DNA from: Planctomycetota bacterium
GTDB lineage: Bacteria > Planctomycetota > JAJSAM01 > JAJVHW01
Direction of reading: 5' to 3'
Assembly (NCBI GenBank): GCA_965248445.1
Contig: CBDFJG010000004.1
Span: 864,001 to 928,000 of the forward strand
Length of the DNA: 64,000 nucleotides
Shown here piece by piece: positions 17,470 through 44,974 of this stretch; positions within the stretch are counted from its first letter, which is position 1, and each line of letters opens with the position of its first letter. The notes beneath the pieces were generated by a model. The model was given only the letters and a program-made list of their open reading frames with translations, made no database searches and was not told the DNA's origin. Made by a program: the position numbers and the translations under genes.

Positions 17470-17490
17470 CAAGACCAACGGAACCCAAGC

Positions 17491-17560: not shown

Positions 17561-17707
17561 GTGCGTTCTTCGTGTCGTCGGCGGCGCGCTGCCGTTGGTC
17601 GGAGACTTCGACCGCAACGGGGGCGCGTCCTTCCCTCGAGGCTCGCGAAAACGCGGGGGACGGTAGCCTGTTAGAATCTGGGCGCCGATGATGGGGGATG
17701 ACGACGC

Positions 17708-26289: not shown

Positions 26290-26400
26290 CGCTGGTTCCT
26301 CCACCGCCCTGCACAGTAATCATCCGTGGGGTCGTCGGTGTCTCAGCCACGTTGGCACAGAGGGCGATCTCGTGGGGTGGAGGGGCAGGGAGCTACCTAG

Positions 26401-28046
26401 CCGCATCTGTTCACGAGACGTCGCGATGACGGTGCTTTCGGAGTCCACAGGGTCAGATCTTGGCCAGGCGAGGGCGGATGCTGTCGTCGTTGCCACAAGG
26501 GCAACGCGAGTGAGCGGCCGAAACGGCGCGGATTCTGCGGTGTGGGCAGACCGTAGGCCGGGCGGTGGTGTGGCGGACGGCGCGGCGGGACGTCAGGTCG
26601 GCTTCGGGGATGCCAGCAGTCGTTGCGCGCAGCGCTCGAAGACGTGCTGCCAGGGCCACGACGAGGACATCGAGACCCAGATCCGGCGCGTCGTGATCCG
26701 CACGAGCGCGCCGATCTTGAGCAGCCGCAGGCGGATCGTGCCGGCTTGCGCACGCGCCATCTCGGTGCCGGCGAGACCGATGCGTCGCAGCGCACAGGTC
26801 AGGACGTAGGCCATGGCCGACATGGCCATCCGCACGGCGTTGCCCTGCATCGTGTGCACCGACAGACGGGTGCCGAAGAGCTCGAGCTGCTGCTCCTTGA
26901 TGCGATTCTCCGCCTCGCCCCGGGCGCAGTAGAGCTGCTCGTAGAGACGCTTGCTGCTCCAGCTACGAGGCGGCAGATTGGTCACCACGAAGCGGGGATT
27001 GCGCTTGCCGCCCGGCAGGTGCTCGGCCTTGGCGACCACGCGACGCCTCTGGCTCCAGCTCCCCAGCGTGGTCCAGGCAAAGTCGCGAAAGACCCGGGCT
27101 GCTCGGCCGGTCTGCACGGCACGGGCTGCGGCCTCATCGAGCGCGTCTTCGACGTGTCGCTCAAGGCGCTCATTGCGCGCCATGCCCAGCAGGTAGAAGT
27201 GGCCGGCGGCCTCGCACCAGGCCATCAGCTCCTCGCGGCAAAAGCCCGAGTCTGCGCGCACGAGCACCTTGGCCCGGGGCCAGCGGCGCCGCAGACGTAA
27301 GACCAGCGCACGGAGCTCGTCCACGACTCCGCGCGCGGGATCTCTGTCAGCGGTCTGGAGCCGAGCGAGCAAGAGGTGCTCGCCGCAGAAGACGTACAGC
27401 GGCAGGTAGCAGTAGTGCCCGTAGTAGCCGTGGAAGAAGCGGCCCTCCTGCCGGCCGTGCAGCCGCACGTCGGAGTGGTCCAGGTCCAGCACGAGCAGGC
27501 CCGGATCCTCCGGCCCCATGGCCTCGCAGAAGACGTCGCTGAGCACGCTGTCCACGCGCTCCTGGTCCATCTCGATCTTGGCGTAGCGCGTCTGTGCCGT
27601 GGCGCCGAGCTGCGTGGTCTCGAGCCGCGAGAGCGTCGGGTGCGTGGCCAGAGCACCCTCGCGCTTGCCGCACGCCGCGGCAAACAGCGGGTCCTTGCCG
27701 ACATGGTCGTGGTCCACCAGATCCTCGTAGCCCGCGCACAGCCCGAAGACCCGCTGACGCAGCATCTGGCCGACCGTGTGCTCGACCCGACGCGGGTCCC
27801 GGTGGTCCCCGAAGCAGCGCGCAAACCGCGAGAGCAGATCGATGCGACGATCGGTCCGCTCGAGCAGCAGCACGCCCCCGTCGCTCGTCACGGTACCGGC
27901 GTCGAAGCGCGTCACCGCGGTGCGTCCACAGATGCCCGCGAAGAGGGTCCCCTGCGGGCTACAGTCTGTCGTCATCGGGCCGGCGCTCCTGTCGGTGCAA
28001 GTACTAGCGAGTACGAGCACTTAGACAGACGACGGCCCGCTCAGAT
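26401..28046 (-). mobile_element. IS1380-family element, copy 1 (left ~22 bp removed by adjacent IS3)
   Basis: Reverse complement of copy 2; CTAG at 26397-26400 next to the right end. Confidence 0.92.
26593..27975 (-). CDS. IS1380 family transposase
   Basis: FDAGTVTSDGG, HGRQEGRFFHGYY, RADSGF, YCARGEAENRIKE. Confidence 0.95.
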   Translation of the reverse strand: MTTDCSPQGTLFAGICGRTAVTRFDAGTVTSDGGVLLLERTDRRIDLLSRFARCFGDHRDPRRVEHTVGQMLRQRVFGLCAGYEDLVDHDHVGKDPLFAAACGKREGALATHPTLSRLETTQLGATAQTRYAKIEMDQERVDSVLSDVFCEAMGPEDPGLLVLDLDHSDVRLHGRQEGRFFHGYYGHYCYLPLYVFCGEHLLLARLQTADRDPARGVVDELRALVLRLRRRWPRAKVLVRADSGFCREELMAWCEAAGHFYLLGMARNERLERHVEDALDEAAARAVQTGRAARVFRDFAWTTLGSWSQRRRVVAKAEHLPGGKRNPRFVVTNLPPRSWSSKRLYEQLYCARGEAENRIKEQQLELFGTRLSVHTMQGNAVRMAMSAMAYVLTCALRRIGLAGTEMARAQAGTIRLRLLKIGALVRITTRRIWVSMSSSWPWQHVFERCAQRLLASPKPT

Positions 28047-28101
28047 TGGAGTTCCCCCGGTTCGGTGGACACCCGACCACTGAGGTTGGGAGGATGTCCA
28101 G

Positions 28102-28416
28102 ATGCCCAGATCGAGACCACCGTACGACGAGGAGTACAAGCGCCAGATCGTCGAGTTGCACCGCGCCGGCCGGAGCGTGATGAGCCTGTGCCGCGAGTTC
28201 GAGCCGACGGAGATGACGATCCGCAAGTGGATCAAGCAGGCCGCGCTGGACGCCGGAGAGCGTGACGACGGCTTGACCACCGCGGAGCGCGATGAGCTGC
28301 GCAAGCTCAGACGAGATGTGCGCCGGCTGCGCGAGGAGCGCGACATCTTGAAAAAAGCCGCGGCCTGGTTCGCTCGGGAGACGCGCTCGATCCCAGAGAA
28401 GGGTTCGGGTTCGTGA
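28102..28416 (+). CDS. IS3 transposase OrfA
   Basis: YDEEYKRQIV...ERDILKKAAAWF. Confidence 0.92.
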   Translation: MPRSRPPYDEEYKRQIVELHRAGRSVMSLCREFEPTEMTIRKWIKQAALDAGERDDGLTTAERDELRKLRRDVRRLREERDILKKAAAWFARETRSIPEKGSGS

Positions 28417-29054
28417 GCGATCACCAGGCAGAGCACGACGTGGCCACCATGTGTCGGGTCCTCGGCGTCTCGAGGAGCGGGTACTACGCATCGCGCGGCC
28501 GTGCGCCCTCGAAGAGAGATCGCGAGGACGCTGCCCTGACCGAGCGCGTCCGCGAGATCCACGAGCGCTCTCGCCAGACGTACGGATCACCGCGCATCCA
28601 TGCCGAGCTGCGCTACGAGGGCCTCCACATCGGTAGGAAGCGCGTCGAGCGCCTCATGCGCCAGGCTGGGATCGAGGGCGTGAGCCGCCGCAAGAGAGCC
28701 AAGACCACGAAGCGCTCGCAGCGTCAGGCGCCGGCCGCCGACCTGGTCGATCGCGACTTCACGGCCGACGCACCCGATCAGCTCTGGGTGGCCGACATCA
28801 CGTACGTGCCGACCTGGACGGGGTTCCTGTACCTGGCGGTCGTCCTCGACGTCTGGAGCCGCCGGATCGTCGGCTGGTCCATGGCCACGACGCTCCACAC
28901 CAAGATCGTGCTGGACGCACTCGAGATGGCCGTGCGCCAGCGCCAGCCCCTCGGAGTCGTCCACCACTCCGACCAGGGCTGCCAGTACACGTCGCTCGCC
29001 TTCGGGCGGCGCTGCAGAGAAGCGGGCGTCAGGCCGTCCATGGGATCGGTCGGA
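28413..29054 (+). pseudogene. IS3 transposase OrfB, truncated before the catalytic Glu
   Basis: YGSPRI, WVADITY, HHSDQG, SMGSVG then interrupted by the IS66 IR. Confidence 0.88.
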
Positions 29055-30586
29055 GTACCCGTTCAGCCCTTGGTTCTGAGCTCGGATCCAGATCGCTTTC
29101 CGTTCGGTCGATGAATCGGATGTGGGCACCGATGAGCTGCGTGATCTGGTCGAGCGCCTGACCCGTCGTCTGGACGCTCGGGACGAGACGATTGCCGAGC
29201 AGGCGGAGGTGATCGAGCGGCAGGCGGCACGGATCGACGATCTCGAGAGCCGTCTTCGCCGGGACTCCCGCACCTCCTCGCGCCCACCGTCCTCGGATCC
29301 GTCGTGGTCCAAGAAGCGGCGGCGGCGCAAGCCGCCGTCGGACAAGCGCCAGGGTGCGCAGCCCGGCCACAAAGGGGCGACGCGCAAGCTCGTGGACGAG
29401 TCCGAGGTCGATGGCGTAGAGGACCACCGCCCGCGCGAGTGCAGCGCGTGTGGGAGCGACGTGCTCGTCCCGATCGATCGCGCCCCGACACGCCAGCAGG
29501 TCTTCGAGGTCCCGCCACGGCTGATCCAGGTGACCGAGCACCGGTTGCACCGGGCACGGTGCACGGACTGTGGCGCCACGTCCACTGCCTCGCTGCCAAG
29601 CGGTGTGACGGCGAGTCCCTTCGGCCCGCGACTCTGTGCGCTCACCGCGGCTCTGGTCGGCGTCTTCCGCCTGTCGCGGCGCGAGACCAGTCGTCTGTTG
29701 CGTGACGTCATCGGCGTCTCGATGTCACCGGGCACGGTCAGTGCGATCGAGGAGCGGGTGTCGGGAGCCATCTCCTCAGCGCACATCGAGGCCCTCGGGG
29801 CCGTACGCACGAGCAGCGTCGCCTATGTAGACGAGACACCGTGGTCGCGTCGTGGCACGCTGCATTGGCTGTGGAGCGCGGTCTGTGAGCACGCCACGGT
29901 CCATCGTATCGATCGGCGCAGGAGCGCCAAGGCCATGCGGCGACTCGTGGGCAAGCGCTTCAGGGGCGTCCTCGTGACCGACCGTATGGGCGCTTACGAC
30001 CAGCATCCCACCGAGCGCCGCCAGATCTGCTGGGCGCATCTCGAGAGGGACTTTCGAGCGCTGGCCGAGGGCTCGCGCGGCGGCCGGCGCTTCGGCAAGC
30101 AGGCCGTGCGTCTCGCCCAGGCTGTCATGCGAGCTCAGCGTCACTTCGGCGAGCACGGGGACCGCGACCGCATGCGGCGTGAGCTGCGTCTCACATGGGA
30201 CCGACTCCTGACGCTGCTCGTGCGCGGCGCAGACAGCAAGCACCGCCGAGTACGCGGAACGACTCGGCATCTGCTCGACCGAGCGGAGGCTCTGTGGACC
30301 TTCGCCGACGTCCCTGGCGTCTCCCCGACGAACAACGCCGCTGAGCGCGCGGTGCGCAAGCCGGTCCTGTGGAGACGCGCAACGCACGGAAGTCAGAGCG
30401 AGCGCGGACTCCGCTTCGTCGAGCGCATCCTGACCGTCACCGCCACGCTCCGCCAGCGTGGCGAGAGCGTCTTCGATTACCTCGCAGACGTCAGCGCGGC
30501 ACTCGCGCACAACCGCTCGCCGCCGGCTCTCGTCGCGCTCCCGATCACGCGCTGAGGCCGCGGATCGTCATACCCTGAACGGGTAC
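29055..30586 (+). mobile_element. IS66-family element, copy B (distinct from copy A)
   Basis: IR GTACCCGTTCAG / CTGAACGGGTAC; no flanking direct repeat. Confidence 0.9.
29122..30555 (+). CDS. IS66 family transposase
   Basis: DSRTSSRPPSSD, YVDET, QICWAH, PTNNAAERAVR. Confidence 0.95.
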   Translation: MGTDELRDLVERLTRRLDARDETIAEQAEVIERQAARIDDLESRLRRDSRTSSRPPSSDPSWSKKRRRRKPPSDKRQGAQPGHKGATRKLVDESEVDGVEDHRPRECSACGSDVLVPIDRAPTRQQVFEVPPRLIQVTEHRLHRARCTDCGATSTASLPSGVTASPFGPRLCALTAALVGVFRLSRRETSRLLRDVIGVSMSPGTVSAIEERVSGAISSAHIEALGAVRTSSVAYVDETPWSRRGTLHWLWSAVCEHATVHRIDRRRSAKAMRRLVGKRFRGVLVTDRMGAYDQHPTERRQICWAHLERDFRALAEGSRGGRRFGKQAVRLAQAVMRAQRHFGEHGDRDRMRRELRLTWDRLLTLLVRGADSKHRRVRGTTRHLLDRAEALWTFADVPGVSPTNNAAERAVRKPVLWRRATHGSQSERGLRFVERILTVTATLRQRGESVFDYLADVSAALAHNRSPPALVALPITR

Positions 30587-30595
30587 AAACTTTCA

Positions 30596-30639
30596 GGGGG
30601 GGGGGGGGGGGGGTAAGTCCTTTTTGAACAACGACTTAC
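30596..30639. repeat. Poly-G tract (18 G) plus GTAAGTC-N13-GACTTAC inverted repeat
   Basis: Directly read. Confidence 0.8.
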
Positions 30640-30871
30640 GAGCTTCACGCGCCGTCTTTCCCCATCTCGCTGGCGTCTGCGCCAGGCTCGGGTGCGAGAG
30701 GCGTTCGGCTTGGCCATCGCGGGAGTAGAGCACGCTCCCCCCGCCAGCGCAAACGAACCCCTGAGGGACTTCGGCCGAGGGGTAGCGTCCCACGAAGGTG
30801 TGTACATTTGTCTGACGACAGATTCTAAGGAAGCAACCTGGATGGGCCAGCCACGGATAGGAGGTGCGACC

Positions 30872-31108
30872 TCACGCCGGCCGGAGGCTGTTGGGCGGGT
30901 TCGGATGCTCCCGGACGCACCACTCCCACAGCTCGACGTGGTGCTGGCGCTCCCGCAGGAGGTCGGGGTAGAGGCCGACGACGGCGTCCGACAGAGCCTG
31001 GATGGGAAGATCCACGATCTCCCCCGCGACGGCGAAGCGGCGCTTGCCGGTCGGGCTGAGGCCGAGATCCTGAGCGAGCAGGAGTGTCCCGGGGAAGCGA
31101 GCGGCCAT
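30872..31108 (-). CDS. Small hypothetical protein, last gene of tail operon
   Basis: Starts 3 nt after the lipoprotein stop; no recognisable motif. Confidence 0.5.
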   Translation of the reverse strand: MAARFPGTLLLAQDLGLSPTGKRRFAVAGEIVDLPIQALSDAVVGLYPDLLRERQHHVELWEWCVREHPNPPNSLRPA

Positions 31109-31111
31109 CGG

Positions 31112-31615
31112 CTACTCGGCGGGCTCCGGTTCCTTCTCCGGATCGGCGGTCGGCGCCTCGGTGGGCTTCTCGGCCGCCACGTCGTTCGAGCCGCCCGCCA
31201 GACCAAGGGCCTCCGCGACCGACTCGGCGGCTCCCTTCGCCGGGCCGTCCAGGTTGGCGTCCACGCGGATCGGGGTCTCGTTCGTAGGAGACGCCGTGCC
31301 TCCGCGCTGATCGGTGCCGACCTTCACGTCCTGGCGCGAGTAGAACAGATCGCCGACGCTGCCGGGGTTGCCCGCGGCCGCGCGTGCCTGGACAAACGCG
31401 GCGAGCTGCTCGGGCGTCCAGCGGTCCATGCCGAGCGGCCAGTCGGAGACGGTGACCTGGGTACGCACGACATCGGCTTCCTCGACGGCGAGGACACCGG
31501 CCGACCAACTGAGCGTCGGGTTGGCGGCGCCGGCGTCGGCGCGCCCGGTGGCGCAGCCGGGAAGCAGGAGAGCGGCCGGCAGGATGGCGAGAGCGGCGAG
31601 CAGGGGGAACTTCAT
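31112..31615 (-). CDS. Lipoprotein in lysis-module position (spanin-like or exclusion lipoprotein)
   Basis: MKFPLLAALAILPAALLLPGC lipobox; ATGA-coupled to holin-like gene. Confidence 0.6.
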   Translation of the reverse strand: MKFPLLAALAILPAALLLPGCATGRADAGAANPTLSWSAGVLAVEEADVVRTQVTVSDWPLGMDRWTPEQLAAFVQARAAAGNPGSVGDLFYSRQDVKVGTDQRGGTASPTNETPIRVDANLDGPAKGAAESVAEALGLAGGSNDVAAEKPTEAPTADPEKEPEPAE

Positions 31616-31893
31616 CGGTGTGACTCCTCTCGGTCGAGATGGTGCTCGACCCGTTCGATGGAGGCCTTCGCGGCCCCCAGGATCTCGGTGCACGTGGTGA
31701 TGAGCGCCGCGGACCTCTCTTCGAGGACCTCCACGGCGCGCACGGACTGACGCTGCGCCTCGTGGCACGCGTCGGCGATCACCTTCTGCGTCGCGTCGCT
31801 CTCGCGCATGCGGCGCAGGAAGAGCACCACCAGGACGACGAGCACCACGAGGGAGGGCACCTGACGGGCGGCTTCGGTGAGCACGGCTTCCAT
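31612..31893 (-). CDS. Putative holin (single N-terminal TM plus coiled coil)
   Basis: 93 aa; VPSLVVLVVLVVLFLRR TM followed by charged helix; located after tail genes. Confidence 0.55.
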   Translation of the reverse strand: MEAVLTEAARQVPSLVVLVVLVVLFLRRMRESDATQKVIADACHEAQRQSVRAVEVLEERSAALITTCTEILGAAKASIERVEHHLDREESHR

Positions 31894-31896
31894 GGA

Positions 31897-33197
31897 TCAG
31901 GCCCGGGCTGCAGCGTCACCTGCGTGCGCGTGACGGCCACGATCTCGACGCTCCCCGGGTAGCCGAGCAGGTGGGCCGTGACCTTCGGGGCGTTCTGGAA
32001 GGGCTCCGGGAACACCACCACGATCGGATCGTCGGGGCCGACCACCACGTCGCCCTCGAGCTTGCGGTTGAACTTGCGTCGGATGATCACGAGCCGTGGG
32101 ATGCGCACGTACCGCAGGCCGTCGCCTCGAACGGTGACCCGCAGCCGACAACGCCAGTACGTGTAGGTCCCGGCGACATGCGGACGGTAACCGTCCCAGG
32201 GCCCCGCGGGCGTCGGGCTCGTGTCGATCTCAACCTCAACGTCCGGCGGGACCAGCGGCGTGAGTCGCCACGAGTTCTTGGACGCGAAACCCGGTGTGCC
32301 GAGCGGGATGGTCGTGCCGTCCCTGGTCCGACGCGCGCCGAGTGCCGGACGGCGCACGGCGCCGAACGGGAGTGCGCCGTCTACGGGATACTCGACGCCG
32401 AGGTCGAGTTCCACGCGCTGGTGCTCGACCTGGCCGGCATCGAAGACGGACGACTCGTAGGAGCCCTCGGGCCAGTACTTCGCGAAGCACGGCACTTCCA
32501 CGAACGACCCGAAGGGTGACGCCGCGGCCCCGAAGTGCTCGGGCAGGCGTTCGAGACGCAGAGCGCCGCCGTCCAACTCGACGTGAGTCTTCGGACCCAT
32601 CCAGCCCTGGGCACCCTCGTCGGACGTGTCCTCCGTGACGTGGTCGTCGAGCGACTCGATCGTGACGGTGACCGTCGCTGCCGCGCGCGAGGTGCGTCCG
32701 TTCCGGTCCACGGCCTTCATGTGGAACTTCTGCGAGCCGGAGGAGGACCAGGCCCAAGAGTACGGCGAACTGTTCGGGTCTGCGGCGACGCGTGTCCCGT
32801 CCTCCCACGTGGACCCTCCGCGGATCTCGTGCGTTGCAGTCACGCCATCCGAAGGCACGGACCAGCGGAAGTTCAGGTTCGCTCCGTCCTGCGAGACGGC
32901 GAACCCGCTGGGTGTGCCGGGGAGCTGAGGCGTGCCCTCGTCCGCCATCGGCGCGACCCGGACGGTCTCCCACTCGTCCTCTTCGACGAGGCCGCCGTCA
33001 TCGAGGACTGCTGCGGCGGCGAAGGAGTAGGCACGCTCCGGGTGCAGTCCCTCGGCTGTGAACTCCGTTCCCTGCGTGCGACTGACCTCCGTCCAACCCG
33101 TGCTCCCCTCCTCGCGCTTGAGCACGGCGGTGGTGCCCGACTCTGCGCGAGACCAGGAGAGAACGACATCGACGTAGCGGAGGGTGTCATCGCCCAC
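31897..33197 (-). CDS. Tail tip/fibre protein with FN3-like domains
   Basis: VLSWS...YSFAAAAV and PGTPSGFAVSQDGANLNFRW FN3-like repeats; C-terminal VVFPEPFQNAPKV; probable stop at 31897 if a 1-bp indel is present (ORF otherwise runs to 31779). Confidence 0.7.
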
Positions 33198-33240
33198 GTG
33201 TCCGAGGATCTCTCCGTGCGGAGCCTCTCTCCACTCGCCG

Positions 33241-35871
33241 TCACCTGACCCGCGCTCGCAGGTTCGTCACGCGCCGCGGGCGGCGTCCCCGACGTCTCGC
33301 CTGGCGTCCACGCCCACGCGCCACCGTGGCCTGCGCGCTGACGGGCACGGTCACGGACTGGAGCGTGTAGGCCGTGGACTTCATCACGCGGCCCGCGTAC
33401 CGCACCACGATCTTGCCGTCCTCGTCGCGTCCGACGATCCCGGCCAGGACACGGACCTTGAGCTCCAGCGCCTTGGGGCCGGTCGAGTACGGCACCCGCG
33501 TCTTCACGGTCACGATGTCGGCAGCCTCGATGTGCTGCACACCGGGGTGCGCTTCCCACGAGCAGGGGAACGGCAGCTCGCGCGCCTGCACGGCCAGGTG
33601 ACGAAGCATCCGCGCGGCCTCGGTCTCGCGCGTGGCGCCGCGCAGGTTCACCTCGCGGATGTTCGTGGGCGTGCCCTCGGGGAGCCCGTCCACCGGGTAG
33701 AGCAGTTCGTCGCGCTCGTGCCGAATCGTCTCGTTCCAGAAGGATCCCTGGATGCCGGAGGGGGACTTGCCCCACTCGTCGAGCTTCAGCACGAACTTCG
33801 ACATGTTCTGGTTGCGCGGGTCCACGTCGTCGATGAACGTGAAGACGGGGTCGCCGTCCTGGTCGAGCGGGAACCGCCAGCGCACGCCCTGGAGCGTGGC
33901 GAAGCAGTAGCCGAGGAAGGCAATGTCGCCGACCGTCTCCATGAGCGACTGCGGCGTGTCGAAGACGACGTTCAGGCGGCAGCGGCGCTCGCCGTTGGTG
34001 GCTGAGGCGGGCCGGTTGGCGTCGTCGCCGGGTCGGTGAACCCATGCGTCGCAGAAGTCGGCGAACGCAATCAGGCCGTTGCGTTCCGCGGGCGAGCCGT
34101 TGGCACCAAGGAAGAGGTCCTGGCCGGTGAAGAAGAAGCCCGCCCCGTAGCGCTCGGTGGCCGCGCCCTCCGCCGAGGTCACAAGGTCGCGGATCGCCAG
34201 CGCGGCGTTCTGGCTGGAGCCGAGGTCCCGCGCCCCTCCCTGCGCATCCGTGCGCGGGTCGTAGAGCTTCGCCCGCCGCGCGATGCAGGTGACACGCAGG
34301 CTGCCACCCGAGAGGAACGCACCCGGGCTCCCGCGTAGACCGAGCAGCGCCGTCCCCGGGTAGCAGAAGCCCTCGTGGAGCACCTCGGTGACGTACGTGA
34401 AGTTGAGCTCGTCCACGACGAGCGGGTCCGTCGGGTGCGCGGTCAGCCGCGTGACGCGGACCTCGTAGGCGTCGCGGTCGAACTCCTCCAGCGCCGTCGT
34501 CGCTCCGCTCTCGCCCTCGATCGCGCGCTGGGTCAGCTCGTCCTTGACGTCGATCTCCCAGCGCATCGTGCCGGGTCGCTCGCCGATCAGCACGAAGCTG
34601 TTCCCGCCGGCGGACCGCAGCCGGTTCCAGGAGGACGCACCGAGCGTGCGGTACTCGACGCGCAGCGCCACCTGGACCGCGCGAGTGCCGCCGTCGTCCT
34701 TGTAGTGGATCATCCCCTGCGGGGCGGTGATGCCGATCCGCAGGTTGTCGGCCTCGCGGCCCGCGGTCGTGTAGCTGATCGGGTTGGAGCGCTTCAGCAG
34801 ACTGTCGTTCGGGTTGCGCGATTGCTCGAGGTCCGTGACCCCGTCGATCGGCTGCTGGTCGAGCGTTCCCGGTCGCCACACGATCCGAAGCCGCCGGAAC
34901 GCCGACGTCCGGTAGGTCGCGGTGACCTTCTTCCCGCTCGACGGCGCCCTGCCGAAGATCACCTTGGTGACGCCCTTGACGTTCTGCGTGAACGCAACGC
35001 CCTCGGCGCCCAGGTACTCGTAGGCGACGCGTACCGTGAAGCCCCGCGGCGGCCGCCGCTTGAAGCGGATCTTCACGCGGTGTGGCGCGAGCTTCTGCGC
35101 GCTCCACCGGTAGACGCCCACGCCGCGAAGCTGCTCGAACTCGGGCGCTCCCGGGCCGCGGATGAAGAGCCGCAGCGAGCGGCCGAGAATGCGGTCCGTC
35201 CGGTCGTCGCGACGCAGGTTGAAGGTGAGCTTGGGGCGCGGGAGCGGGAACCCGGTGAGCGGGTTGTACGTGACGGGCGGCGGTGCGGGGACCGTGAACT
35301 CCGCGCTCGCCGTCAGCGTCATCCACGCCTTCTTGACCCCGTCTACGAAGAGCTCGACACCCGGCATCTCGTCGTCGCCGAGCACGACCTTACGGTGCGG
35401 GAACGTGAACGTGCGCCTCTTGTTGTTGCCCCGCCCGAGTTCCTCCTCGTAGAGCTTGGACAGGATCTCACGGTCGTTGATGCGGATGTCGGAGATGTCC
35501 GCGATCTCGCCCTCGGCGACGATGCCGAGCCAGCGGAACTCCTGGCGGCGGGTGTTGCGGATGTCGCCCGGCGAGACGCCCTCGATCGCCTCGGTGACCG
35601 ACTCGTTGATCACGACCGGCTTGATGGTGTGCTCGCCGTAGAGGATCGGGACGTGCGCCTCGGGGCCGCGGGGGTTGTCGAAGCGGTCGATCCCGTAGGT
35701 GGGCGAGTCCCGGAGCTGCTTTTGCCGCGGCGGCGTGGGGGTGAGCGCCGTGCCGGCGATGGTCCCCGCTCCCGACACGATCAGCGGGACGCCCACCGGC
35801 GTCGCGATCAGCAGGATGCCCGCGACGATCTGGAGCGCGCCGAGGACGTAGCCGAGGGTCTTGCTCGCCAC
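33241..35871 (-). CDS. Phage tail tip / host-specificity protein (lambda gpJ-like)
   Basis: VPILYGEH, IVAEGEI, YEVRVTRLT, YPGTALLGL, SQNAALAIRDL, FADFCD, RCRLNVVFD. Confidence 0.85.
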   Translation of the reverse strand: MASKTLGYVLGALQIVAGILLIATPVGVPLIVSGAGTIAGTALTPTPPRQKQLRDSPTYGIDRFDNPRGPEAHVPILYGEHTIKPVVINESVTEAIEGVSPGDIRNTRRQEFRWLGIVAEGEIADISDIRINDREILSKLYEEELGRGNNKRRTFTFPHRKVVLGDDEMPGVELFVDGVKKAWMTLTASAEFTVPAPPPVTYNPLTGFPLPRPKLTFNLRRDDRTDRILGRSLRLFIRGPGAPEFEQLRGVGVYRWSAQKLAPHRVKIRFKRRPPRGFTVRVAYEYLGAEGVAFTQNVKGVTKVIFGRAPSSGKKVTATYRTSAFRRLRIVWRPGTLDQQPIDGVTDLEQSRNPNDSLLKRSNPISYTTAGREADNLRIGITAPQGMIHYKDDGGTRAVQVALRVEYRTLGASSWNRLRSAGGNSFVLIGERPGTMRWEIDVKDELTQRAIEGESGATTALEEFDRDAYEVRVTRLTAHPTDPLVVDELNFTYVTEVLHEGFCYPGTALLGLRGSPGAFLSGGSLRVTCIARRAKLYDPRTDAQGGARDLGSSQNAALAIRDLVTSAEGAATERYGAGFFFTGQDLFLGANGSPAERNGLIAFADFCDAWVHRPGDDANRPASATNGERRCRLNVVFDTPQSLMETVGDIAFLGYCFATLQGVRWRFPLDQDGDPVFTFIDDVDPRNQNMSKFVLKLDEWGKSPSGIQGSFWNETIRHERDELLYPVDGLPEGTPTNIREVNLRGATRETEAARMLRHLAVQARELPFPCSWEAHPGVQHIEAADIVTVKTRVPYSTGPKALELKVRVLAGIVGRDEDGKIVVRYAGRVMKSTAYTLQSVTVPVSAQATVARGRGRQARRRGRRPRRVTNLRARVR

Positions 35872-35874
35872 GAC

Positions 35875-36522
35875 TCACTCCACCCGGAGCGCGCGCGCGT
35901 CAGCGGAGGTCGGGAACCCCCCGAACCGAAGCGGCTCGCCCTCGTAGTGCTTGCGGCAATCCTCGCGTGTCCTCGCGCAGGTCGGCAGATCGCCCACGTA
36001 GCCGCAGTGGCTGCCCCGGTAGATCCAGCGGCAGCGAAGCCCCTGGAGGGTGCGGTCGGGGATGCGGATCTCCTCCGCGGGGAAGACGCCCAAGTCGAAC
36101 GCCACCGCCTCGCGCCCGATGAAGGAGTAGGCGCTGACGAAGAAGACCCACTCGATGACCAGGTCCTCGGGGGCTGGGTTCCCGGGGAGTGGGCCCGTGA
36201 GCAGCGTGCGGCTTGCCTGCCGGATCGTGCAGCGACGGCCGCGCAGGTCCTCGCCACCCGCATCGGGGTGGCAGAGCGGACCGAGCACACCGTCCGCGTT
36301 CTGGAGCACCAGCTGGAGGGCGGGGATCTCGCGCTCGGCTGACTCCTGGATCTCGCCGAACGCGCCGCCTGTCGCCTCGAACGTGAGGTCGTTCCACACG
36401 CGGGGCTCCGTGTCGATCGCGTAGCGAAGCGGCGTCGTCTTGCGCTCGATCTCGACCAGCGCCACCAGGTCGAGCTGGTCGCCTTCCAGCAGCGCGAGCA
36501 GCGCGGGGCTCTTGGCTCTCAC
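35875..36522 (-). CDS. Minor tail protein (lambda gpL-like hub with Cys cluster)
   Basis: CRWIYRGSHCGY...CARTREDC...RFGGFP. Confidence 0.8.
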   Translation of the reverse strand: MRAKSPALLALLEGDQLDLVALVEIERKTTPLRYAIDTEPRVWNDLTFEATGGAFGEIQESAEREIPALQLVLQNADGVLGPLCHPDAGGEDLRGRRCTIRQASRTLLTGPLPGNPAPEDLVIEWVFFVSAYSFIGREAVAFDLGVFPAEEIRIPDRTLQGLRCRWIYRGSHCGYVGDLPTCARTREDCRKHYEGEPLRFGGFPTSADARALRVE

Positions 36523-37175
36523 AGGACGTTCGGGGTCTCGGCGTAGCTCCAGCCGGGCCCCGCCTCCCGCAGTTGGACGGACACCGTACGGTCAACGAGC
36601 GCGTCGCCGACGGCGCCGCCGGTCGCGAGCTCCTGGTCGTCGGGCAGATCGTCCCCCTCGAAGCGCACGGGGACATAGAAGTCGTAGGCGAGCGTGACGG
36701 TCGCGCCCGTCCCGGGTGCCGTGACGAAGCGGACGACGAGCTTGGAGGACGTGCCGAGCACGTACGCGCCGCCCGACTCGTTCACCACCGAGTAGTGGAC
36801 GCCGAGCGTCTGCAGGAAGCCGTCCTTCCGGACGACCAGCGTCGCGGTGTCCACGTAGCGCCGCGTCGCGTCGAAGTCCTTCTGCGTCGCGCTCTCGACA
36901 GCGGGCGCGTCGATCATCGCCTTCGCGCCGGAGTTCTGCTGCTGGTAGAGGAACGCCTCGAAGCCGCCGAAGCGCGCGTTCCAGAACGCCTCGAAGTCCC
37001 TGTAGGTGCCGCCCTTGTTCGGGAAGAGCAGTGAGCCGCGCACGGCCAACTCGCCCGCGGCGTGGATCTTCTGCAGCGTGCGCCGCCCGCCGCCCTGCTC
37101 GTGGACCACGTTGCGAAACGCCTGGTACTCGACGAACGACCTGCGGAGGAACGTGAAGGGGAAGATCGTCGCCAC
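36519..37175 (-). CDS. Distal tail protein (DUF2460-like)
   Basis: FEAFWNARFGGFEAFLY, FVTAPGTGATVTLAYDFYVPVRF. Confidence 0.8.
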   Translation of the reverse strand: MATIFPFTFLRRSFVEYQAFRNVVHEQGGGRRTLQKIHAAGELAVRGSLLFPNKGGTYRDFEAFWNARFGGFEAFLYQQQNSGAKAMIDAPAVESATQKDFDATRRYVDTATLVVRKDGFLQTLGVHYSVVNESGGAYVLGTSSKLVVRFVTAPGTGATVTLAYDFYVPVRFEGDDLPDDQELATGGAVGDALVDRTVSVQLREAGPGWSYAETPNVL

Positions 37176-37177
37176 CG

Positions 37178-39629
37178 TCAGTCCCTCGCCCGTGCGCCGC
37201 GGCGGCCAGGACGGCTGAGCGCCGAGCCGACGATCGCCGCGCGCGCATCGGGGCTGGACTTGGCCATCACGTCGTCGGCGATGACGGCGGGCGGCCGGAC
37301 GGTCAGCGCCACGTTGATGTCGCCCTCGCCGCGGGAGTTGGCGCCGTCGGTCACGCGGATCACTTCGCCCGGCGAGACCTTCATGGTGACGAGCTGGCTG
37401 TCGAGGCCACCGAAACCGCCCACGCGGAAGGTGCCTCCGTGCGCCGCCGAAGCAGCCGGCGCGGCCGAGGCCCCTCCAGCACCGGCATCGGCACCGCCTC
37501 CTGCCCCCGAGAGGCCTGGGAACAGAGACAGGATCGCCTTCATGATCAGGGCCTGCTGGATCATGCGTGCCACGTCGAGAGCGAACTGCGCCGCGAAGTC
37601 CCGGAACGCCTCCGACGCCGACCTGCTCCCGCTGGCGACCTCTGCCAAGGCGTCGTTGATCCCCGCCGGAGAGGTCGTTCACGGCGACATCGGCCATCTG
37701 CGCTCCCAGCCGACCCCACCCCGCCGTCTCCTCGCGAAGCTGGCTGATCCGCGCCTGGAAGCCCGCGCCGAGATCCTCGCCGGTGACCGCCGCGGACAGC
37801 TGCCCCTGCCGGCGAACGCGCGCCTGCGCCTGCGCCGAGAGCGCCTCGATCTCCAGCGCCTTCGTGAGCTCGCCGCGGCGGCGCAGTTCCTCGACCTGCT
37901 TGCGCGTCTCCTCCTGGAGTGCGGCCAGGTGCGCCGCTGTGGCAAGGCGCGCGAGCCGGGACTGATCCGTCTCGCCCTCGGCCGCGAGGGCGAGGACGCG
38001 CTGGTTGTAGTCGGCGAGCCAGGCGAGCTCCTGCTCGCGCCCCTCGCGAAGGATCGTGCGACGCTGGTCGATGTGTGCGGCGAAGAGCGCGCGGCGCTTC
38101 TGCCCGGCCTGCTCCTGCGGCAGGAGCCCGCGCCGTTCGGCGTCGCCGACGATGCGGACCTCGGCGCTGTAGCGCGCCCCCGCCTCGTCGAGCTGCAGCC
38201 GCGTGAGGTTCCGGTCGTCCACGAGCGTCGCGGCCTGCGCCTGCCGGCGGATCGCGTCCACGCGGTCGAGGAAGTTGCTCTGCGCGTCGATCGCGAGCTG
38301 GTCGTGCTCGGCGTTGATGGCCGCCTCTCGCCGACGGAACTCCTCCACGAGCCGCAGGTACTCCGGCGCGTCGCGCTCGAGCCCCTCCAGCGCCTTCGAC
38401 GCGAGCGTCTCCTCGACCTCGGCGCGATGCTCGGTGAGCGCCTTGTCGCGGTCAGCGACGCCGGGGTCCACGCGAAGTGCGGCGCGGTCGTTCTCGCGGC
38501 GCAGCGCATCCGCGCGCGTCGCAGCGGTGCGCACGGCAGCGATGCCCTCCCGAACCGTCTTCTCGCGCTCCAAAAGATCGAGCATCTCGCGCTCGTGCTG
38601 GATGCGTGCCCGTAGTTCGTTGCGCTTCTCGGGCGGCCCGTCCGAAGCGCGCCGCAGGTCGTCGATCGCGTCGTTGATGCGAGAGCGCTGGCGCTCCAGC
38701 GCGGGATCGAAGAGATCGGGACGCAGCAGCCCCTGGATTGCGACGCCCTTGTCGCGACGCGCCCGCTCCCGCGCAGTCTGCGCCGCGTCGAACTGTGCCT
38801 GCGCGGACGCGGCGGCCTTGGCGTCGGCGGCGATCTTCTTCTGCGCGTCGGCCTCTTCCTTCACGGCGGCGGCGGCCTTCTTCCGGCTGCCCGCGATCTC
38901 GTCCTGGATCTCCTGCTGCTCACGCAGGCCGGCGATGTAGCGCTCCTGCTCCCTGACCAGCGCGTCGGCGGCCTGGGCGGCGTTGTCGATCGACGGGAGG
39001 AAGCCCTCGCGCGGGAAGATCGCAGCGCCGAGATTGCGCCAGAACGAGCCAACGTCCTCGTGGCCGATGAGGCCCGCCTGACTCTCCCTGACAGCGAGGT
39101 TCTTGCGGCGGCGGAGTTCCTTCTCGGCGCCCGCGATGTCCACGTCAGCCGACTCGGCGTCCTCGCCGCGACGCAGGAGGCCCAGTTCGATCCGCAGCTT
39201 CTCCAAGCTCTCGCGTGTGGACTTCGCCCGGTCCTCGGTCGCAGCGAAGACCGAGACGATGTCCTCCTTCTGAGAGACGAGCAGCGCGAAGCCCGCACCG
39301 ACAGCGGCGATGGCGATGCCGACCGGCGTGAAGCCACCCGAGACGAGTCCGGCGAGCGAGGTCGTGATGCCGGACATCGCCGGGGACACCTCGCTGCCCA
39401 TGAGCGTCAGGGACTGGGTGGCGAGCTGCGTCGCCTGCTCCACGCCGCGCAGAGCCGGACCAACGCCCTGGATCTCGTTGGTGACCGAACGCATTGCCTT
39501 GCCCGCGCTGCCCATCTGGCGGATCTCGGTGCCGGTCTTCTTGACGGCGGCGCGCGCCTTGCCGAGATCGGACGTGATCTGCGCGGAGTCCGCGCTGAGC
39601 AGCACTCGCAGCTTTCCGACGACGGCCAT
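37178..39629 (-). CDS. Tail tape measure protein (~816 aa), +1 G frameshift at ~37661
   Basis: VGKLRVLLSAD N-terminus; long Ala-rich helices; C-terminal AHGGTFRVGG...GEVI; removing one G in CGGGGATC restores the frame. Confidence 0.85.
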
Positions 39630-39632
39630 GGG

Positions 39633-39940
39633 TCAGGCTTCCCGCCCGGAGGGGGCGACGGAGAAGGACGCGGCGAGCGCTCGCGCGGCGTCCATCTGCT
39701 CCTCCGGGTCCTGTTCAGCGTCGCCCCGCCCGGAGACTCGGTCCATGAGGGGGCCGAGGTCCGGCATGCGCTCGACGCGGGAGAGCGCGGCGGCGTGCCA
39801 GGCCGTGAAGATCGCGAGTTCGTAGGTCCGTTGGCGCTCAGCGGAGAGTGCGCGCAGGTGACACGCGGTCTCGCGCGGCGTCTGCCGCCAGAACACCGCG
39901 GGCGGGATGCCCGCTTCGGCGGCCCGGTCCCGCCACTCCT
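39633..39940 (-). CDS. Tail assembly chaperone GT extension (likely -1 frameshift product)
   Basis: AGIPPAVFWRQTPRE...AWHAAAL; lies in the -1 frame relative to upstream G ORF with no own start. Confidence 0.7.
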
Positions 39941-40327
39941 CTAGTCCGAAGGGGCGGGCGTCGGAGGGACGGCGGTCCCTTGCGAAGGGTCCGCCTCGGC
40001 GGTCTCGGGCTGTTCCTCCTCCAGTTCCGGGAAGTAGTACCGCAGGGCGACTCCGAGGATGCGCTGCGCCTCCTTGCGGCCCATCGCGTCGATGAGGCGT
40101 CCGGCGAGCTTCAGGGTCAGGTCGGGGTGGTGCTCCTGGAGGCCCGCCCAGAGCATCGCGCGCAGCGATGTCGCGGAGAGCTTCTCGTGGGCGATGTCGA
40201 GCAGGGCGTCGGAGAGCACGCGGCCCGAGGCGTGCTCGAACTCGCACGCAGCGGACCAGTGGAACTTCACCCGGTAGACCTTCTCGTCGGCCTCGAAGGC
40301 CGCCTCGCCACGCAGTGGATTCGGCAT
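39941..40327 (-). CDS. Tail assembly chaperone G (GTA-gp10-like)
   Basis: MPNPLRGEAAF...LRAMLWAGLQEHHPDLT. Confidence 0.8.
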   Translation of the reverse strand: MPNPLRGEAAFEADEKVYRVKFHWSAACEFEHASGRVLSDALLDIAHEKLSATSLRAMLWAGLQEHHPDLTLKLAGRLIDAMGRKEAQRILGVALRYYFPELEEEQPETAEADPSQGTAVPPTPAPSD

Positions 40328-40881
40328 CAGCCAACCCTCCTCAAGTAACCGGCCAACTTCACCAGCAAGCCGAGGTCGTCGTGAGCCTGCCCGAGGGCTC
40401 GGTTGCATCTGTCGCAGAGGAGCCCTCGGATGCACTCCCCGCACGAACGCCTGCCCGGGCAGCACCCGTGATCGTGGTCCACCGCAAGCCGCCGGGGCTC
40501 TCCGGTGCGCTTGTTGACGGCCGTCTCAGTCCCGTCGCACACCGCGCATCTCCCGCCTTGCTTCGCGAGCATTCCGTCGTAGTCCGCAAGGCTGATCCCG
40601 TACTGGCTTCGCAGGTACCAGTCCGCGCGCTTGTCTGGGTTGGCGACGAACCAGGCCCGGTTCGTCGCCTTCACCTGCTCCCGGTGCGCCTCGCACCAGG
40701 CCTTCTGATACGTCTTCCTGCAGGGCTTGCACCATGCGGTCCGGCCATCGCGTGCCCGGCTCGCTCGGTGGAAGTCACCCCGAGACTTCGCCTCACCGCA
40801 CTTGCTGCAGACCTTCAGCGCCGGAGCGGCTTGGGGCACGCAGGTCGAGGTCTCGGACACGCTCCGAGAGTCGAGGCGCAC
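40327..40881 (-). CDS. Endonuclease VII-type HNH nuclease
   Basis: CSKC..WCKPC Zn finger; QYGISLADYDGMLAKQGGRCAVC...LAVDHDH...IRGLLCDRCNRALG. Confidence 0.9.
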   Translation of the reverse strand: MRLDSRSVSETSTCVPQAAPALKVCSKCGEAKSRGDFHRASRARDGRTAWCKPCRKTYQKAWCEAHREQVKATNRAWFVANPDKRADWYLRSQYGISLADYDGMLAKQGGRCAVCDGTETAVNKRTGEPRRLAVDHDHGCCPGRRSCGECIRGLLCDRCNRALGQAHDDLGLLVKLAGYLRRVG

Positions 40882-40904
40882 GGAGACTCGCGCAACCAGT
40901 CCGA

Positions 40905-41354
40905 CTACGCGAAGTCCGTCGGGACTGCCTTGCCTGTGACCTTAATTTTCACCGCCACGGTGAGCAGGTCCTTGGCAGCCGAGGACGGCTCCCAACCAGT
41001 GATGAAGCCGGGCACCGTCAGGGTGGGGGTGTTCGGGAACTGCGGCCACTCGACGCGCCACTTGCGCGTCGTGCCCGCGAGGAAGTCCGCGAGCAGACCC
41101 GAGTTCGAGCCGTGGGAGACGTGCTCGGGGCGGAAGTTGAGCACCAGTGAGATCTCGCCGCCGTTGGCGATCCCCGGTACGAATTCCGCGTGGTCGTCGG
41201 GGGACTCGGTGTGGGTGGCCTCGACCGCGTCCCTCGACAGGGAGGGTCCGCCGATCGACTTGACCTCGGCCACCGAGACGAAGGTCCCGCCATCGACGGG
41301 GTCCTCCTTCAGAAACCGGGTCTTGGTGCCGAGCTTCGCGCCAGTCGCTGCCAT
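40905..41354 (-). CDS. Non-contractile phage tail tube (major tail) protein
   Basis: VAEVKSIGGPSLSRDAVEATH...EFVPGIANGGEI...IKVTGK. Confidence 0.88.
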   Translation of the reverse strand: MAATGAKLGTKTRFLKEDPVDGGTFVSVAEVKSIGGPSLSRDAVEATHTESPDDHAEFVPGIANGGEISLVLNFRPEHVSHGSNSGLLADFLAGTTRKWRVEWPQFPNTPTLTVPGFITGWEPSSAAKDLLTVAVKIKVTGKAVPTDFA

Positions 41355-41372
41355 CGCTGTCTCCTCCGCCCG

Positions 41373-41714
41373 CTACAGGGCGAACACCCCCACGGAGAGG
41401 TCCGCCTCGGTCGAGTAGGTCACGACCACGCGGGCGTTGGTGTCGTTGAACGCAGGCGGGTCGAGGGGGCCGATCCAGCGCTCCTCGTCGGCGGGCACGG
41501 AGACGACCAGATCGGTCTTCGCGGCACCTTGCGGCAGCGCCCCGGCCGGGAGCTGCGAGACGATCGTCACAGTCCGGGACGTCAAGAGGTTGGCGTTGAC
41601 CACGCGCAGGAAGACGCGGCCGGAGTTCGGGAAGGCGTCGCCCCCCGCCGCCGTGGGGTCAAGCGCCGGGTCAATCCCCGCGCGCGAGATCTGCTGGACC
41701 GTCAGCACCGCCAT
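41373..41714 (-). CDS. Small phage virion-type protein, first gene of tail operon
   Basis: All-beta-like 113 aa (GDAFPNSGRVFLRVVN...WIGPLDP); GGAGG RBS. Confidence 0.6.
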   Translation of the reverse strand: MAVLTVQQISRAGIDPALDPTAAGGDAFPNSGRVFLRVVNANLLTSRTVTIVSQLPAGALPQGAAKTDLVVSVPADEERWIGPLDPPAFNDTNARVVVTYSTEADLSVGVFAL

Positions 41715-41863
41715 GAGCCCCCTCCGGGGTTGCGCTCTGATCTTGAGCGTCGAGGGCTCCGGAGAGTCGTTCAAGGCAGCGGCACCAGACAGTACGATGC
41801 GCGACTTCACATGGGACATGGGCCGGGCCGACTCAAGCCTGGTGCCCCGGAGGAACGAACCAC

Positions 41864-42247
41864 ATGCCGCGAACCGCCAATACCACCGACGCCCTTCTTG
41901 CCGACCTGAGTAACCGACTCGCGCGACTGGCCGAGACCGCACGCAAGGAGGGCCGCGAAGAGGCGCTCGCGGATGTACGCTCCCTCGTGAGCGGCGAGGC
42001 GACGAAGCGCCGGAAGCCGACTCCGAGGAAGCCCAAGGCGGCGCGCAAGGCTGCCAAGCCACGGACGAAGTCGAAGAAGCCCCGCAAGAGCTCCTGGGCC
42101 GGACTGACGCCCGAGCAGTGGCTCGCACGCGTGAACGCGATCCGGAAAGGACGGGGGCTGCCGCCGAGGGCTGCCACCGAAGAAGGAACGGTAGCTCGGA
42201 GCGAGTCTGGGTTCGGCGGGGTTACCTTGACTAACGACGCCAACTAG
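41864..42247 (+). CDS. Small basic, putative nucleic-acid-binding protein
   Basis: GGAGG RBS; N-terminal helix, K/R/P/A-rich linker, SSWAGLTPEQWLARVNAIRKGRG; stop lies within the IS target CTAG. Confidence 0.65.
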   Translation: MPRTANTTDALLADLSNRLARLAETARKEGREEALADVRSLVSGEATKRRKPTPRKPKAARKAAKPRTKSKKPRKSSWAGLTPEQWLARVNAIRKGRGLPPRAATEEGTVARSESGFGGVTLTNDAN

Positions 42248-43916
42248 CCCGAATCGTTCACCAGCCGGGAATCTGAGCGGGCCGTCGTCTGTCTAAGTGC
42301 TCGTACTCGCTAGTACTTGCACCGACAGGAGCGCCGGCCCGATGACGACAGACTGTAGCCCGCAGGGGACCCTCTTCGCGGGCATCTGTGGACGCACCGC
42401 GGTGACGCGCTTCGACGCCGGTACCGTGACGAGCGACGGGGGCGTGCTGCTGCTCGAGCGGACCGATCGTCGCATCGATCTGCTCTCGCGGTTTGCGCGC
42501 TGCTTCGGGGACCACCGGGACCCGCGTCGGGTCGAGCACACGGTCGGCCAGATGCTGCGTCAGCGGGTCTTCGGGCTGTGCGCGGGCTACGAGGATCTGG
42601 TGGACCACGACCATGTCGGCAAGGACCCGCTGTTTGCCGCGGCGTGCGGCAAGCGCGAGGGTGCTCTGGCCACGCACCCGACGCTCTCGCGGCTCGAGAC
42701 CACGCAGCTCGGCGCCACGGCACAGACGCGCTACGCCAAGATCGAGATGGACCAGGAGCGCGTGGACAGCGTGCTCAGCGACGTCTTCTGCGAGGCCATG
42801 GGGCCGGAGGATCCGGGCCTGCTCGTGCTGGACCTGGACCACTCCGACGTGCGGCTGCACGGCCGGCAGGAGGGCCGCTTCTTCCACGGCTACTACGGGC
42901 ACTACTGCTACCTGCCGCTGTACGTCTTCTGCGGCGAGCACCTCTTGCTCGCTCGGCTCCAGACCGCTGACAGAGATCCCGCGCGCGGAGTCGTGGACGA
43001 GCTCCGTGCGCTGGTCTTACGTCTGCGGCGCCGCTGGCCCCGGGCCAAGGTGCTCGTGCGCGCAGACTCGGGCTTTTGCCGCGAGGAGCTGATGGCCTGG
43101 TGCGAGGCCGCCGGCCACTTCTACCTGCTGGGCATGGCGCGCAATGAGCGCCTTGAGCGACACGTCGAAGACGCGCTCGATGAGGCCGCAGCCCGTGCCG
43201 TGCAGACCGGCCGAGCAGCCCGGGTCTTTCGCGACTTTGCCTGGACCACGCTGGGGAGCTGGAGCCAGAGGCGTCGCGTGGTCGCCAAGGCCGAGCACCT
43301 GCCGGGCGGCAAGCGCAATCCCCGCTTCGTGGTGACCAATCTGCCGCCTCGTAGCTGGAGCAGCAAGCGTCTCTACGAGCAGCTCTACTGCGCCCGGGGC
43401 GAGGCGGAGAATCGCATCAAGGAGCAGCAGCTCGAGCTCTTCGGCACCCGTCTGTCGGTGCACACGATGCAGGGCAACGCCGTGCGGATGGCCATGTCGG
43501 CCATGGCCTACGTCCTGACCTGTGCGCTGCGACGCATCGGTCTCGCCGGCACCGAGATGGCGCGTGCGCAAGCCGGCACGATCCGCCTGCGGCTGCTCAA
43601 GATCGGCGCGCTCGTGCGGATCACGACGCGCCGGATCTGGGTCTCGATGTCCTCGTCGTGGCCCTGGCAGCACGTCTTCGAGCGCTGCGCGCAACGACTG
43701 CTGGCATCCCCGAAGCCGACCTGACGTCCCGCCGCGCCGTCCGCCACACCACCGCCCGGCCTACGGTCTGCCCACACCGCAGAATCCGCGCCGTTTCGGC
43801 CGCTCACTCGCGTTGCCCTTGTGGCAACGACGACAGCATCCGCCCTCGCCTGGCCAAGATCTGACCCTGTGGACTCCGAAAGCACCGTCATCGCGACGTC
43901 TCGTGAACAGATGCGG
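42248..43916 (+). mobile_element. IS1380-family element, copy 2 (complete)
   Basis: Imperfect IRs CCCGAATCGTTCAC / GTGAACAGATGCGG; CTAG on both sides (42244-47, 43917-20). Confidence 0.93.
42342..43724 (+). CDS. IS1380 family transposase
   Basis: Translation identical to 26593-27975. Confidence 0.95.
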   Translation: MTTDCSPQGTLFAGICGRTAVTRFDAGTVTSDGGVLLLERTDRRIDLLSRFARCFGDHRDPRRVEHTVGQMLRQRVFGLCAGYEDLVDHDHVGKDPLFAAACGKREGALATHPTLSRLETTQLGATAQTRYAKIEMDQERVDSVLSDVFCEAMGPEDPGLLVLDLDHSDVRLHGRQEGRFFHGYYGHYCYLPLYVFCGEHLLLARLQTADRDPARGVVDELRALVLRLRRRWPRAKVLVRADSGFCREELMAWCEAAGHFYLLGMARNERLERHVEDALDEAAARAVQTGRAARVFRDFAWTTLGSWSQRRRVVAKAEHLPGGKRNPRFVVTNLPPRSWSSKRLYEQLYCARGEAENRIKEQQLELFGTRLSVHTMQGNAVRMAMSAMAYVLTCALRRIGLAGTEMARAQAGTIRLRLLKIGALVRITTRRIWVSMSSSWPWQHVFERCAQRLLASPKPT

Positions 43917-43949
43917 CTAGACGCCGCCCACGCCCACCCGTGCTTGGCT

Positions 43950-44044
43950 AGCGTCTGTACCGCAGCGTCTGTACCGAGTCAGGACAGGTTCTGAAGCGTT
44001 CGCGTTGCTAGAGCGCACGGACTCTGCAGGAATTGTCCTGACTC
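43950..44044. repeat. 13-bp tandem direct repeat plus ~69-nt imperfect hairpin
   Basis: AGCGTCTGTACCG twice (43950-62, 43964-76); GAGTCAGGACA...TGTCCTGACTC stem. Confidence 0.75.
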
Positions 44045-44130
44045 CGTATGCGTGAACCAATTCGCAAGGGACTATTTGCCGATTCGCCAACCATCGGGCC
44101 CCTCCGCCGCGTGCCGCGCTGGCCGCTTCT

Positions 44131-44811: not shown

Positions 44812-44974
44812 GCCGTGCGAGACGGCAGAGAGCGGTTCGTCGTGCGACGATTTCGGCAGGCCGGGTGGAGGCGCCACGTCCGCAGTTTACGCCGGAGTTG
44901 CGAGTCGCGGCGGCAGGCAGGCTGCTGTTGCGGTCCTTCTTCCAGGTGTCCGGCGTTCTACGCACGTCTCCCGC

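Follow-up and report, generated by a model that had tools for sequence, protein, structure and literature searches.

Twelve co-oriented, tightly coupled minus-strand open reading frames (ORFs), from 41714 to 30872 in a 64,000-nucleotide stretch of a Planctomycetota genome (the window; contig C4:864001-928000 of genome G000, with unprefixed coordinates denoting window positions), form a tail gene block of siphophage type without head genes. This block is very probably the decaying remnant of an HK97-like prophage with a non-contractile tail, which is present in multiple copies in the genome and was decapitated by insertion sequence (IS) elements, and the orphaned block is likely non-functional. 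The original prediction, whose description of the twelve ORFs is partly confirmed, favored an F-type tailocin-like particle and kept an IS-decapitated prophage as its fallback. The former is unsupported in view of head copies in the genome, headed homologs, a broken tape measure gene and lost putative fiber genes, and the latter is supported by headed sister copies, an empty CTAG site and split flanks. IS-driven decay of prophages is already well known, and the finding is of little significance as it stands; it offers a worked example of why a head-less tail block, when seen in a single window, should not be taken as evidence of a tailocin.

The genome (5.4 Mb, 92% complete) comprises four contigs, C1 to C4, and the breaks between them fall inside prophage copies (the start and end of C1, C2 and C4 and the end of C3). 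G006 denotes the genome of a relative, and L-numbers denote the loci compared. The earlier guess of a planctomycete host was borne out at the phylum level, 10 of the 11 records with close tube homologs being named Planctomycetota bacterium (best identity 98%).

Headed sister copies of the tail block

ORFs were compared with Pfam and PHROG families, the head-family scan covering the scanned ORFs of window 16-48 kb, and TerL, portal and capsid matches were sought across the whole genome. The window was said to hold no head gene, and this stands: the scanned ORFs gave no head-family match, and the genome-wide terminase, portal and capsid matches all lie outside the window. The presence of these matches elsewhere in the genome (7 TerL, 4 portal and 5 capsid) speaks against the tailocin reading; some belong to unrelated prophages, and several are 100% identical repeats at contig ends.

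Two nearly full copies of the window operon were found, on C2 and C1, at 88-93% nucleotide identity, and both lie behind head genes. The copy at C2:866857-877918 follows a full head module in the order TerS, TerL, portal, EndoVII, ClpP-type protease, major head, two small genes, Ad1, Hc1, neck and tail terminator. A Lys-rich DUF2924-like gene and a gene of 91 amino acids (aa) then lead to the 113-aa gene that opens the tail, after which come tube, G, GT, tape measure protein (TMP, 817 aa), DUF2460 (218 aa), gpL, gpJ and FN3 (454 aa), followed by a 330-aa gene, an HNH gene and three small terminal genes. At C1:3784-15850, the contig begins inside the capsid gene and continues with connectors and then the same order as in C2. 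The two tube genes of the genome outside the window both sit in these headed copies. In addition, C3:903486-911882 is a rearranged tail-end remnant, and the window copy looks mosaic, with 99.9% identity to C3 over the last 1.25 kb and 91.5% upstream. In five places, the terminase region matches at 100% identity over 7-12.7 kb; the prophage family is thus represented by many recent copies, the majority of which have been cut by IS elements.

One TerL on C2 (C2:887706-890516, or L003:9179-11989 on the minus strand; 936 aa) contains an insert of about 350 aa at residues 111-463 with Hom_end/LAGLIDADG matches; the insert is absent from the terminases of relatives and is likely an intein. Two further, unrelated regions, at C4:465587-495624 and C2:787909-809546, also look like prophages and carry capsid- and tail-like genes, the one on C4 with a gpJ-like gene of 24% identity.

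Among 60 other genomes, eight had a gpJ match: 4 of the 7 members of the same family and 4 of the 9 remaining genomes of the same order, but none of the 44 genomes farther away. Kin are not independent in these counts. A capsid gene lies upstream on the same strand in 10 of 11 tube-anchored loci from four assemblies, the exception (L074) being a broken remnant that has a piece of the tube gene directly next to a piece of FN3. With three further headed loci (L055, L057 and L058) and one contig-edge locus (L054), the relatives provide 13 of 15 tube-bearing loci with a capsid upstream and no intact head-less copy. L044/L045 and L056 duplicate tube-anchored loci; the distant gpJ loci L050-L053 (34-51% identity, no other query gene) and L059 (partial gpJ, no tube) were left out of the count. 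Loci found from gpJ that end within about 2 kb upstream of it or inside it (L046-L049 and L060-L062), as well as the 4.7-kb contig L063, were unscored for a head. The comparison drew on relatives, with no second strain of the same species among them. With few exceptions, the informative loci thus have a head in front of the tail homologs; homologs confined to complete prophages were among the findings that the original prediction had named as refuting a tailocin. A search of a viral contig collection with the tube protein gave 20 pattern matches and 0 relatives. Our data document a family of temperate siphophages, present in multiple copies, across two families of uncultured Planctomycetota, a phylum with few described phages to our knowledge.

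In L044 and L055-L058, 0.8 to 4.9 kb lie between the DUF2924-like/terminator gene and the first tail gene, and this head/tail boundary interval is a cargo hotspot among the prophage copies.

Probable separation of head and tail at an IS1380 element

A tail-less head module is located at C1:75.5-98.4 kb, beside a tRNA-Asn gene. It ends with a tail terminator, a DUF2924-like gene, the 127-aa divergent ORF that also borders the window block, and the intergenic DNA of the window up to 41723 (99.2% over 526 bp), after which an IS3-like transposase fragment follows. The end of this module has kept an empty CTAG site, at C1:97871, one side of which is the left flank of the window IS1380. Its opposite side is found, with 1 mismatch in 20 nucleotides, as the right flank of another IS1380, the one at C3:1192497. 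Behind the latter element lie a DUF2924-like gene, a tail-terminator remnant and then other insertions; head-side genes beside another IS1380 copy, which had been set beforehand as a finding against a tailocin, are therefore present. In their orientations, the flanks are consistent with a single insertion and a subsequent crossover between two IS elements. Among 74 IS1380 left ends examined, seven have a traceable empty site and a partner flank, and the partner is found at another IS copy in five and at the element's own other end in two; flank exchange is thus common in this genome. Taken together, the window and C3:1192497 pieces are probably halves of one prophage copy.

The genome contains 69 near-full IS1380 copies, and 60 of the 74 left ends start with CTAG. 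This is part of a heavy IS expansion with near-identical copies (32 of IS66 and 11 of the IS3 family besides IS1380), in which head-to-tail tandems of IS1380 share one CTAG.

We propose a model whereby the gene string would originally have stood behind terminase, portal, protease, capsid, connectors and tail terminator, as its counterparts do in sister copies and relatives. IS1380 then entered the CTAG at the head/tail boundary, of which the C1 site is the surviving empty form, and a crossover between IS1380 copies probably parted the halves; the other half now flanks the C3 element, with its head-side genes behind. Further IS insertions would have worn down the head side, and the orphan would then have come to carry the TMP frameshift and 3-kb tail-tip deletion seen in the assembly. 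Left with no late-operon promoter, TMP C-terminus or tip accessories, it presumably could not build a tail alone.

A mis-join at the multi-copy IS1380, with the prophage intact in the cell, could mimic such a separation, given about 69 near-identical 1.7-kb IS copies, contigs that break at prophage repeats and no sample contig spanning the stretch. We consider this artefact very unlikely. The C3 head-side piece extends for only about 0.84 kb before other insertions, and re-joining it would not restore a head; in all four runs of one sample, the sample contigs stop at 42248/42249, the IS boundary, which is what a real repeat junction would produce; and the internal lesions of the block are independent of the IS join.

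Lesions and selection in the orphaned block

Compared with C2, the TMP gene of the window contains an additional base within a G run (near 37661-37664), as well as one in-frame 3-bp gap; the TMP genes of C1, C2 and G006 are all in frame at the former site. Via the off-frame stretch, TMP and DUF2460 become a single 1036-aa ORF in the window, where the paralogs encode separate proteins of 817 and 218 aa. The predicted product consists of 656 correct residues, off-frame sequence and then DUF2460, and the 160 C-terminal aa now out of frame still match TMP PHROGs. A tape measure of about 816 aa had been described for the window; its gene is frameshifted in the assembly, and the 816-aa and ~120-nm figures fit the intact sister copies. 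Because the TMP C-terminus of the monocin sits in the tip lumen (PMC11830787), it is reasonable to infer that the frameshifted TMP would lose tip engagement.

The tail-tip deletion takes the last 22 residues of FN3, the 322-aa, 94-aa and 98-aa genes, a 330-aa gene fragment, the HNH gene and one opposite-strand ORF, and a tblastn search of the window with the deleted genes gave no match. In the FN3 protein, the 22 lost residues are exchanged for 40 off-frame residues running over the next gene. The 322-aa and 330-aa genes are putative fiber or accessory virion genes with mixed matches, to a tail fiber family (phrog_11518) and to capsid decoration (phrog_2647 and PDB 9nx3); an Atlas neighbor with Mtd_N in 46% of its members provides a further lead to a fiber.

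Alignment of 112 IS copies (175,553 bases) contained zero gaps, and hence the assembly does not look indel-prone, with the proviso that polishing may be more even in repeats than in single-copy sequence. The sample contigs (four runs) on 29500-44500 list no indel; sister copies collapse there, and no listed piece lies over the TMP site. One contig piece (31875-32655, 0 differences) crosses the deletion junction with fewer than 31 letters on one side and was not counted as bridging.

Over seven genes, dN/dS was 0.094-0.144 for pairs including the window and 0.089-0.183 for other pairs, and window-private changes gave a pN/pS of 0.12, versus 0.115 for G006. Low dN/dS was considered as evidence of domestication and rejected, because it is equally low between headed copies and therefore reflects phage history. 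The original prediction had named real, read-supported inactivating frameshifts with a dN/dS near 1 as a finding against a tailocin; a frameshift is there in the assembly, but dN/dS is far below 1. A long phage-era branch would hide any recent relaxation of selection.

Could the orphan still supply usable parts? Its intact genes (tube, chaperones, gpL and gpJ) might be expressed upon induction of a sister prophage or act as recombination donors, giving rise to mosaic virions, and in favor of this are the 89-97% identity of its proteins to those of the sister prophages, the mosaic look of the window copy and the tail-less head module on C1. Nevertheless, we consider it unlikely, given that no promoter is evident (from a scan of sigma-70 type only), that a stop interrupts the portal gene of the C1 head module and that the C2 prophage, with a full tail module of its own, needs no donor.

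Several observations weigh against the reading of the block as a decaying, decapitated prophage. The genome is only 92% complete, and its contigs end within prophage copies. Window 41639-42249 recurs at 100% identity as C2:458454-459064 with IS1380 in the opposite orientation, so that more than one insertion or a later duplication must have occurred, and between C1 and the head-side piece on C3 the identity is only 92%; the pairing of the window with C3 is for these reasons probable rather than proven. The TMP frameshift sits in a G run and is known from the assembly rather than from reads. Seven structural genes (the first gene, tube, G, GT, DUF2460, gpL and gpJ) are intact, and dN/dS and pN/pS give no relaxed-selection signal, so decay, if any, must be recent.

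Features of the block and known systems

The coordinates of the block and its boundaries are collected in Table 1. Family matches agree with the identities first given to tube, G, GT, DUF2460, gpL, gpJ and FN3, whereas the holin-like and lipoprotein assignments rest on appearance, the 93-aa and 167-aa proteins, like the 78-aa product of the last gene, having no Pfam or PHROG family above the cut-off. The twelve ORFs also include an endonuclease VII-type nuclease, encoded between tube and G, that had been left unnamed. From the position of the frames, we infer a programmed frameshift at G/GT.

Table 1. Features of the tail block, its lesions and its boundaries (window positions)
Feature	Position	Strand	Observations
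IS1380-family element at phage head/tail boundary	42244..43920	+	CTAG at both ends; DDE_Tnp_1_4 transposase 42297/42342-43724, PF13701 E 1e-141
127-aa divergent ORF, prophage-borne, between DUF2924-like gene and tail genes	41864..42247	+	Stop codon inside CTAG target
Phage intergenic region and native ribosome-binding site of first tail gene	41715..41863		Shared with C1 up to 41723; ~60 bp shared with headed C2 copy
113-aa tail protein, first module gene	41373..41714	-	phrog_16194 E 8e-10; 92% identical to headed-prophage copies
Major tail tube protein, lambda-like	40905..41354	-	PF16461, phrog_158; 97% to C1 and C2 copies
Free-standing endonuclease VII-type nuclease	40327..40881	-	PF02945 E 1e-18; insertion relative to C1/C2, absent there between tube and G
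Tail assembly chaperone, G-like	39941..40327	-	phrog_2115; weak PF11836 below cut-off
Chaperone T/GT-like frame overlapping G end	39633..39896	-	phrog_19318; region around G stop conserved in C2
TMP gene, frameshifted +1	37178..39629	-	Shift near 37661-37664, after codon 656
DUF2460 protein, 218 aa, distal-tail position	36519..37175	-	PF09343; own start, also fused to shifted TMP frame; separate gene in C1/C2
gpL-like minor tail protein	35875..36522	-	PF05100
gpJ-like hub/central tail protein, 876 aa, intact	33241..35871	-	PF24801, phrog_31 E 3e-41; 89-95% to headed copies
FN3-type tail-tip protein, altered end	31779..33197	-	phrog_31 positions 888-1084; comparison with C3 and C2
Deletion junction	31903..31904		~2.96 kb of C3:904741-907705 gone; 2-bp overlap at join; from blastn ends
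93-aa protein, hydrophobic N-terminal stretch	31612..31893	-	Holin-like by appearance and position only; 94-100% to C1/C3 copies
167-aa lipoprotein-like protein	31112..31615	-	Signal peptide and lipobox-like motif in sequence
78-aa last phage gene	30872..31108	-	97-100% to C1/C3 copies, 78% in G006
IS stack closing distal end	26397..30586		IS66 29055-30586; IS3 family 28046-29054; IS1380 26397-28047 (minus strand, 26 nucleotides short)

The operon was thought to start at 41714 behind its own ribosome-binding site and a 150-bp gap. Both exist; they are, however, internal late-operon phage sequence, which also lies behind the head module at C1:97870-98395 (99.2%), and a scan of the intergenic region for sigma-70 type sites found 0, with 0.1 expected. 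The 127-aa ORF has copies of 100% aa identity at C1:97874-98254, behind the head module, and at C2:458459-458839, as well as homologs of 45-58% identity at four other places in the genome. It matched no Pfam or PHROG family, and an Atlas search gave leads under 0.9 only. With a predicted coiled-coil start, a Lys/Arg-rich linker and a small C-terminal domain, its product would, by appearance, be a small DNA-binding or silencer-like protein. Outside the block, a gamma-glutamyltranspeptidase ORF (44789-45967) matches profile positions 198-512 only, and its 5' end near IS1380 may be truncated; beyond the distal IS stack, a host locus at 16732-21419 carries PEP-CTERM protein, exosortase, EpsI-like (DUF3485) and TPR genes.

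No regulator family was found by Pfam and PHROG among the 13 ORFs scanned. No peptidoglycan hydrolase was matched in the block either, but the headed C2 copy likewise gave no such match among its tail-distal genes, so the lysin of this family may be unrecognised. These absences, the frameshift of TMP in the assembly, the deletion of the putative fiber genes, the IS elements bounding the block on both sides and the lack of an intact head-less copy among the 15 tube-bearing loci of relatives together make a domesticated F-type tailocin, whose operon the host would keep and induce for head-less non-contractile killing particles, scarcely credible. The best point for the idea is that the module starts just before the tube gene, without a tail terminator, as F-type pyocin clusters do (10.1101/2021.02.16.431561). 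Siphophage-type tube, chaperone, TMP and tip genes with no sheath, at a locus free of head and packaging genes, and the holin-like and lipoprotein genes at the block end are also in its favor, as is purifying selection on the block genes, although dN/dS is equally low between headed copies.

The IS1380 cut lies after the terminator and before the tube, almost exactly at the F-pyocin cluster start. The block might then be a tailocin at its birth, completed in trans by the TMP and fibers of a sister prophage to yield head-less killing tails, a scenario that we hold to be highly improbable; if true, it would be the first such system in Planctomycetota, with a traceable first step of domestication. 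A literature search for planctomycete tailocins found none announced in a title or the start of an abstract, which is not proof of absence in print.

With the F-type pyocins of Pseudomonas aeruginosa, the block shares lambda-like non-contractile tail genes and the lack of a head and a tail terminator. Those pyocins occupy a fixed trpE-trpG locus in all strains studied and have PrtN/PrtR, a full lysis cassette and specificity fibers (10.1101/2021.02.16.431561); in contrast, no fixed locus, PrtN/PrtR, lysis cassette or fibers were found for the window block, and its TMP is broken. Similarly, the monocin (ftb cluster) of Listeria monocytogenes has a gene string derived from a siphophage tail, with tube, TMP and tip. 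The monocin is TP901-1-like and includes regulatory genes, the terminator cap FtbF, side fibers with a receptor-binding protein and holin-lysin (PMC11830787), whereas in the window block a terminator and a regulator are missing and the putative fiber genes have been lost.

The closest likeness is to decaying prophages. Cryptic prophages are described as enriched in IS elements, prone to later deletion and occasionally domesticated into tailocins (reviewed in PMC13492144). The defective HK97/lambda-like prophages treated there have the order head, connectors, terminator, tube, G/GT, TMP, distal tail, gpL and gpJ that is found in our intact sister copies, and they likewise combine IS-associated inactivation with subsequent deletion and frameshift. 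What distinguishes the present case is its host, an uncultured Planctomycetota lineage, and the retention of the empty site and both halves in one genome, which makes the event traceable.

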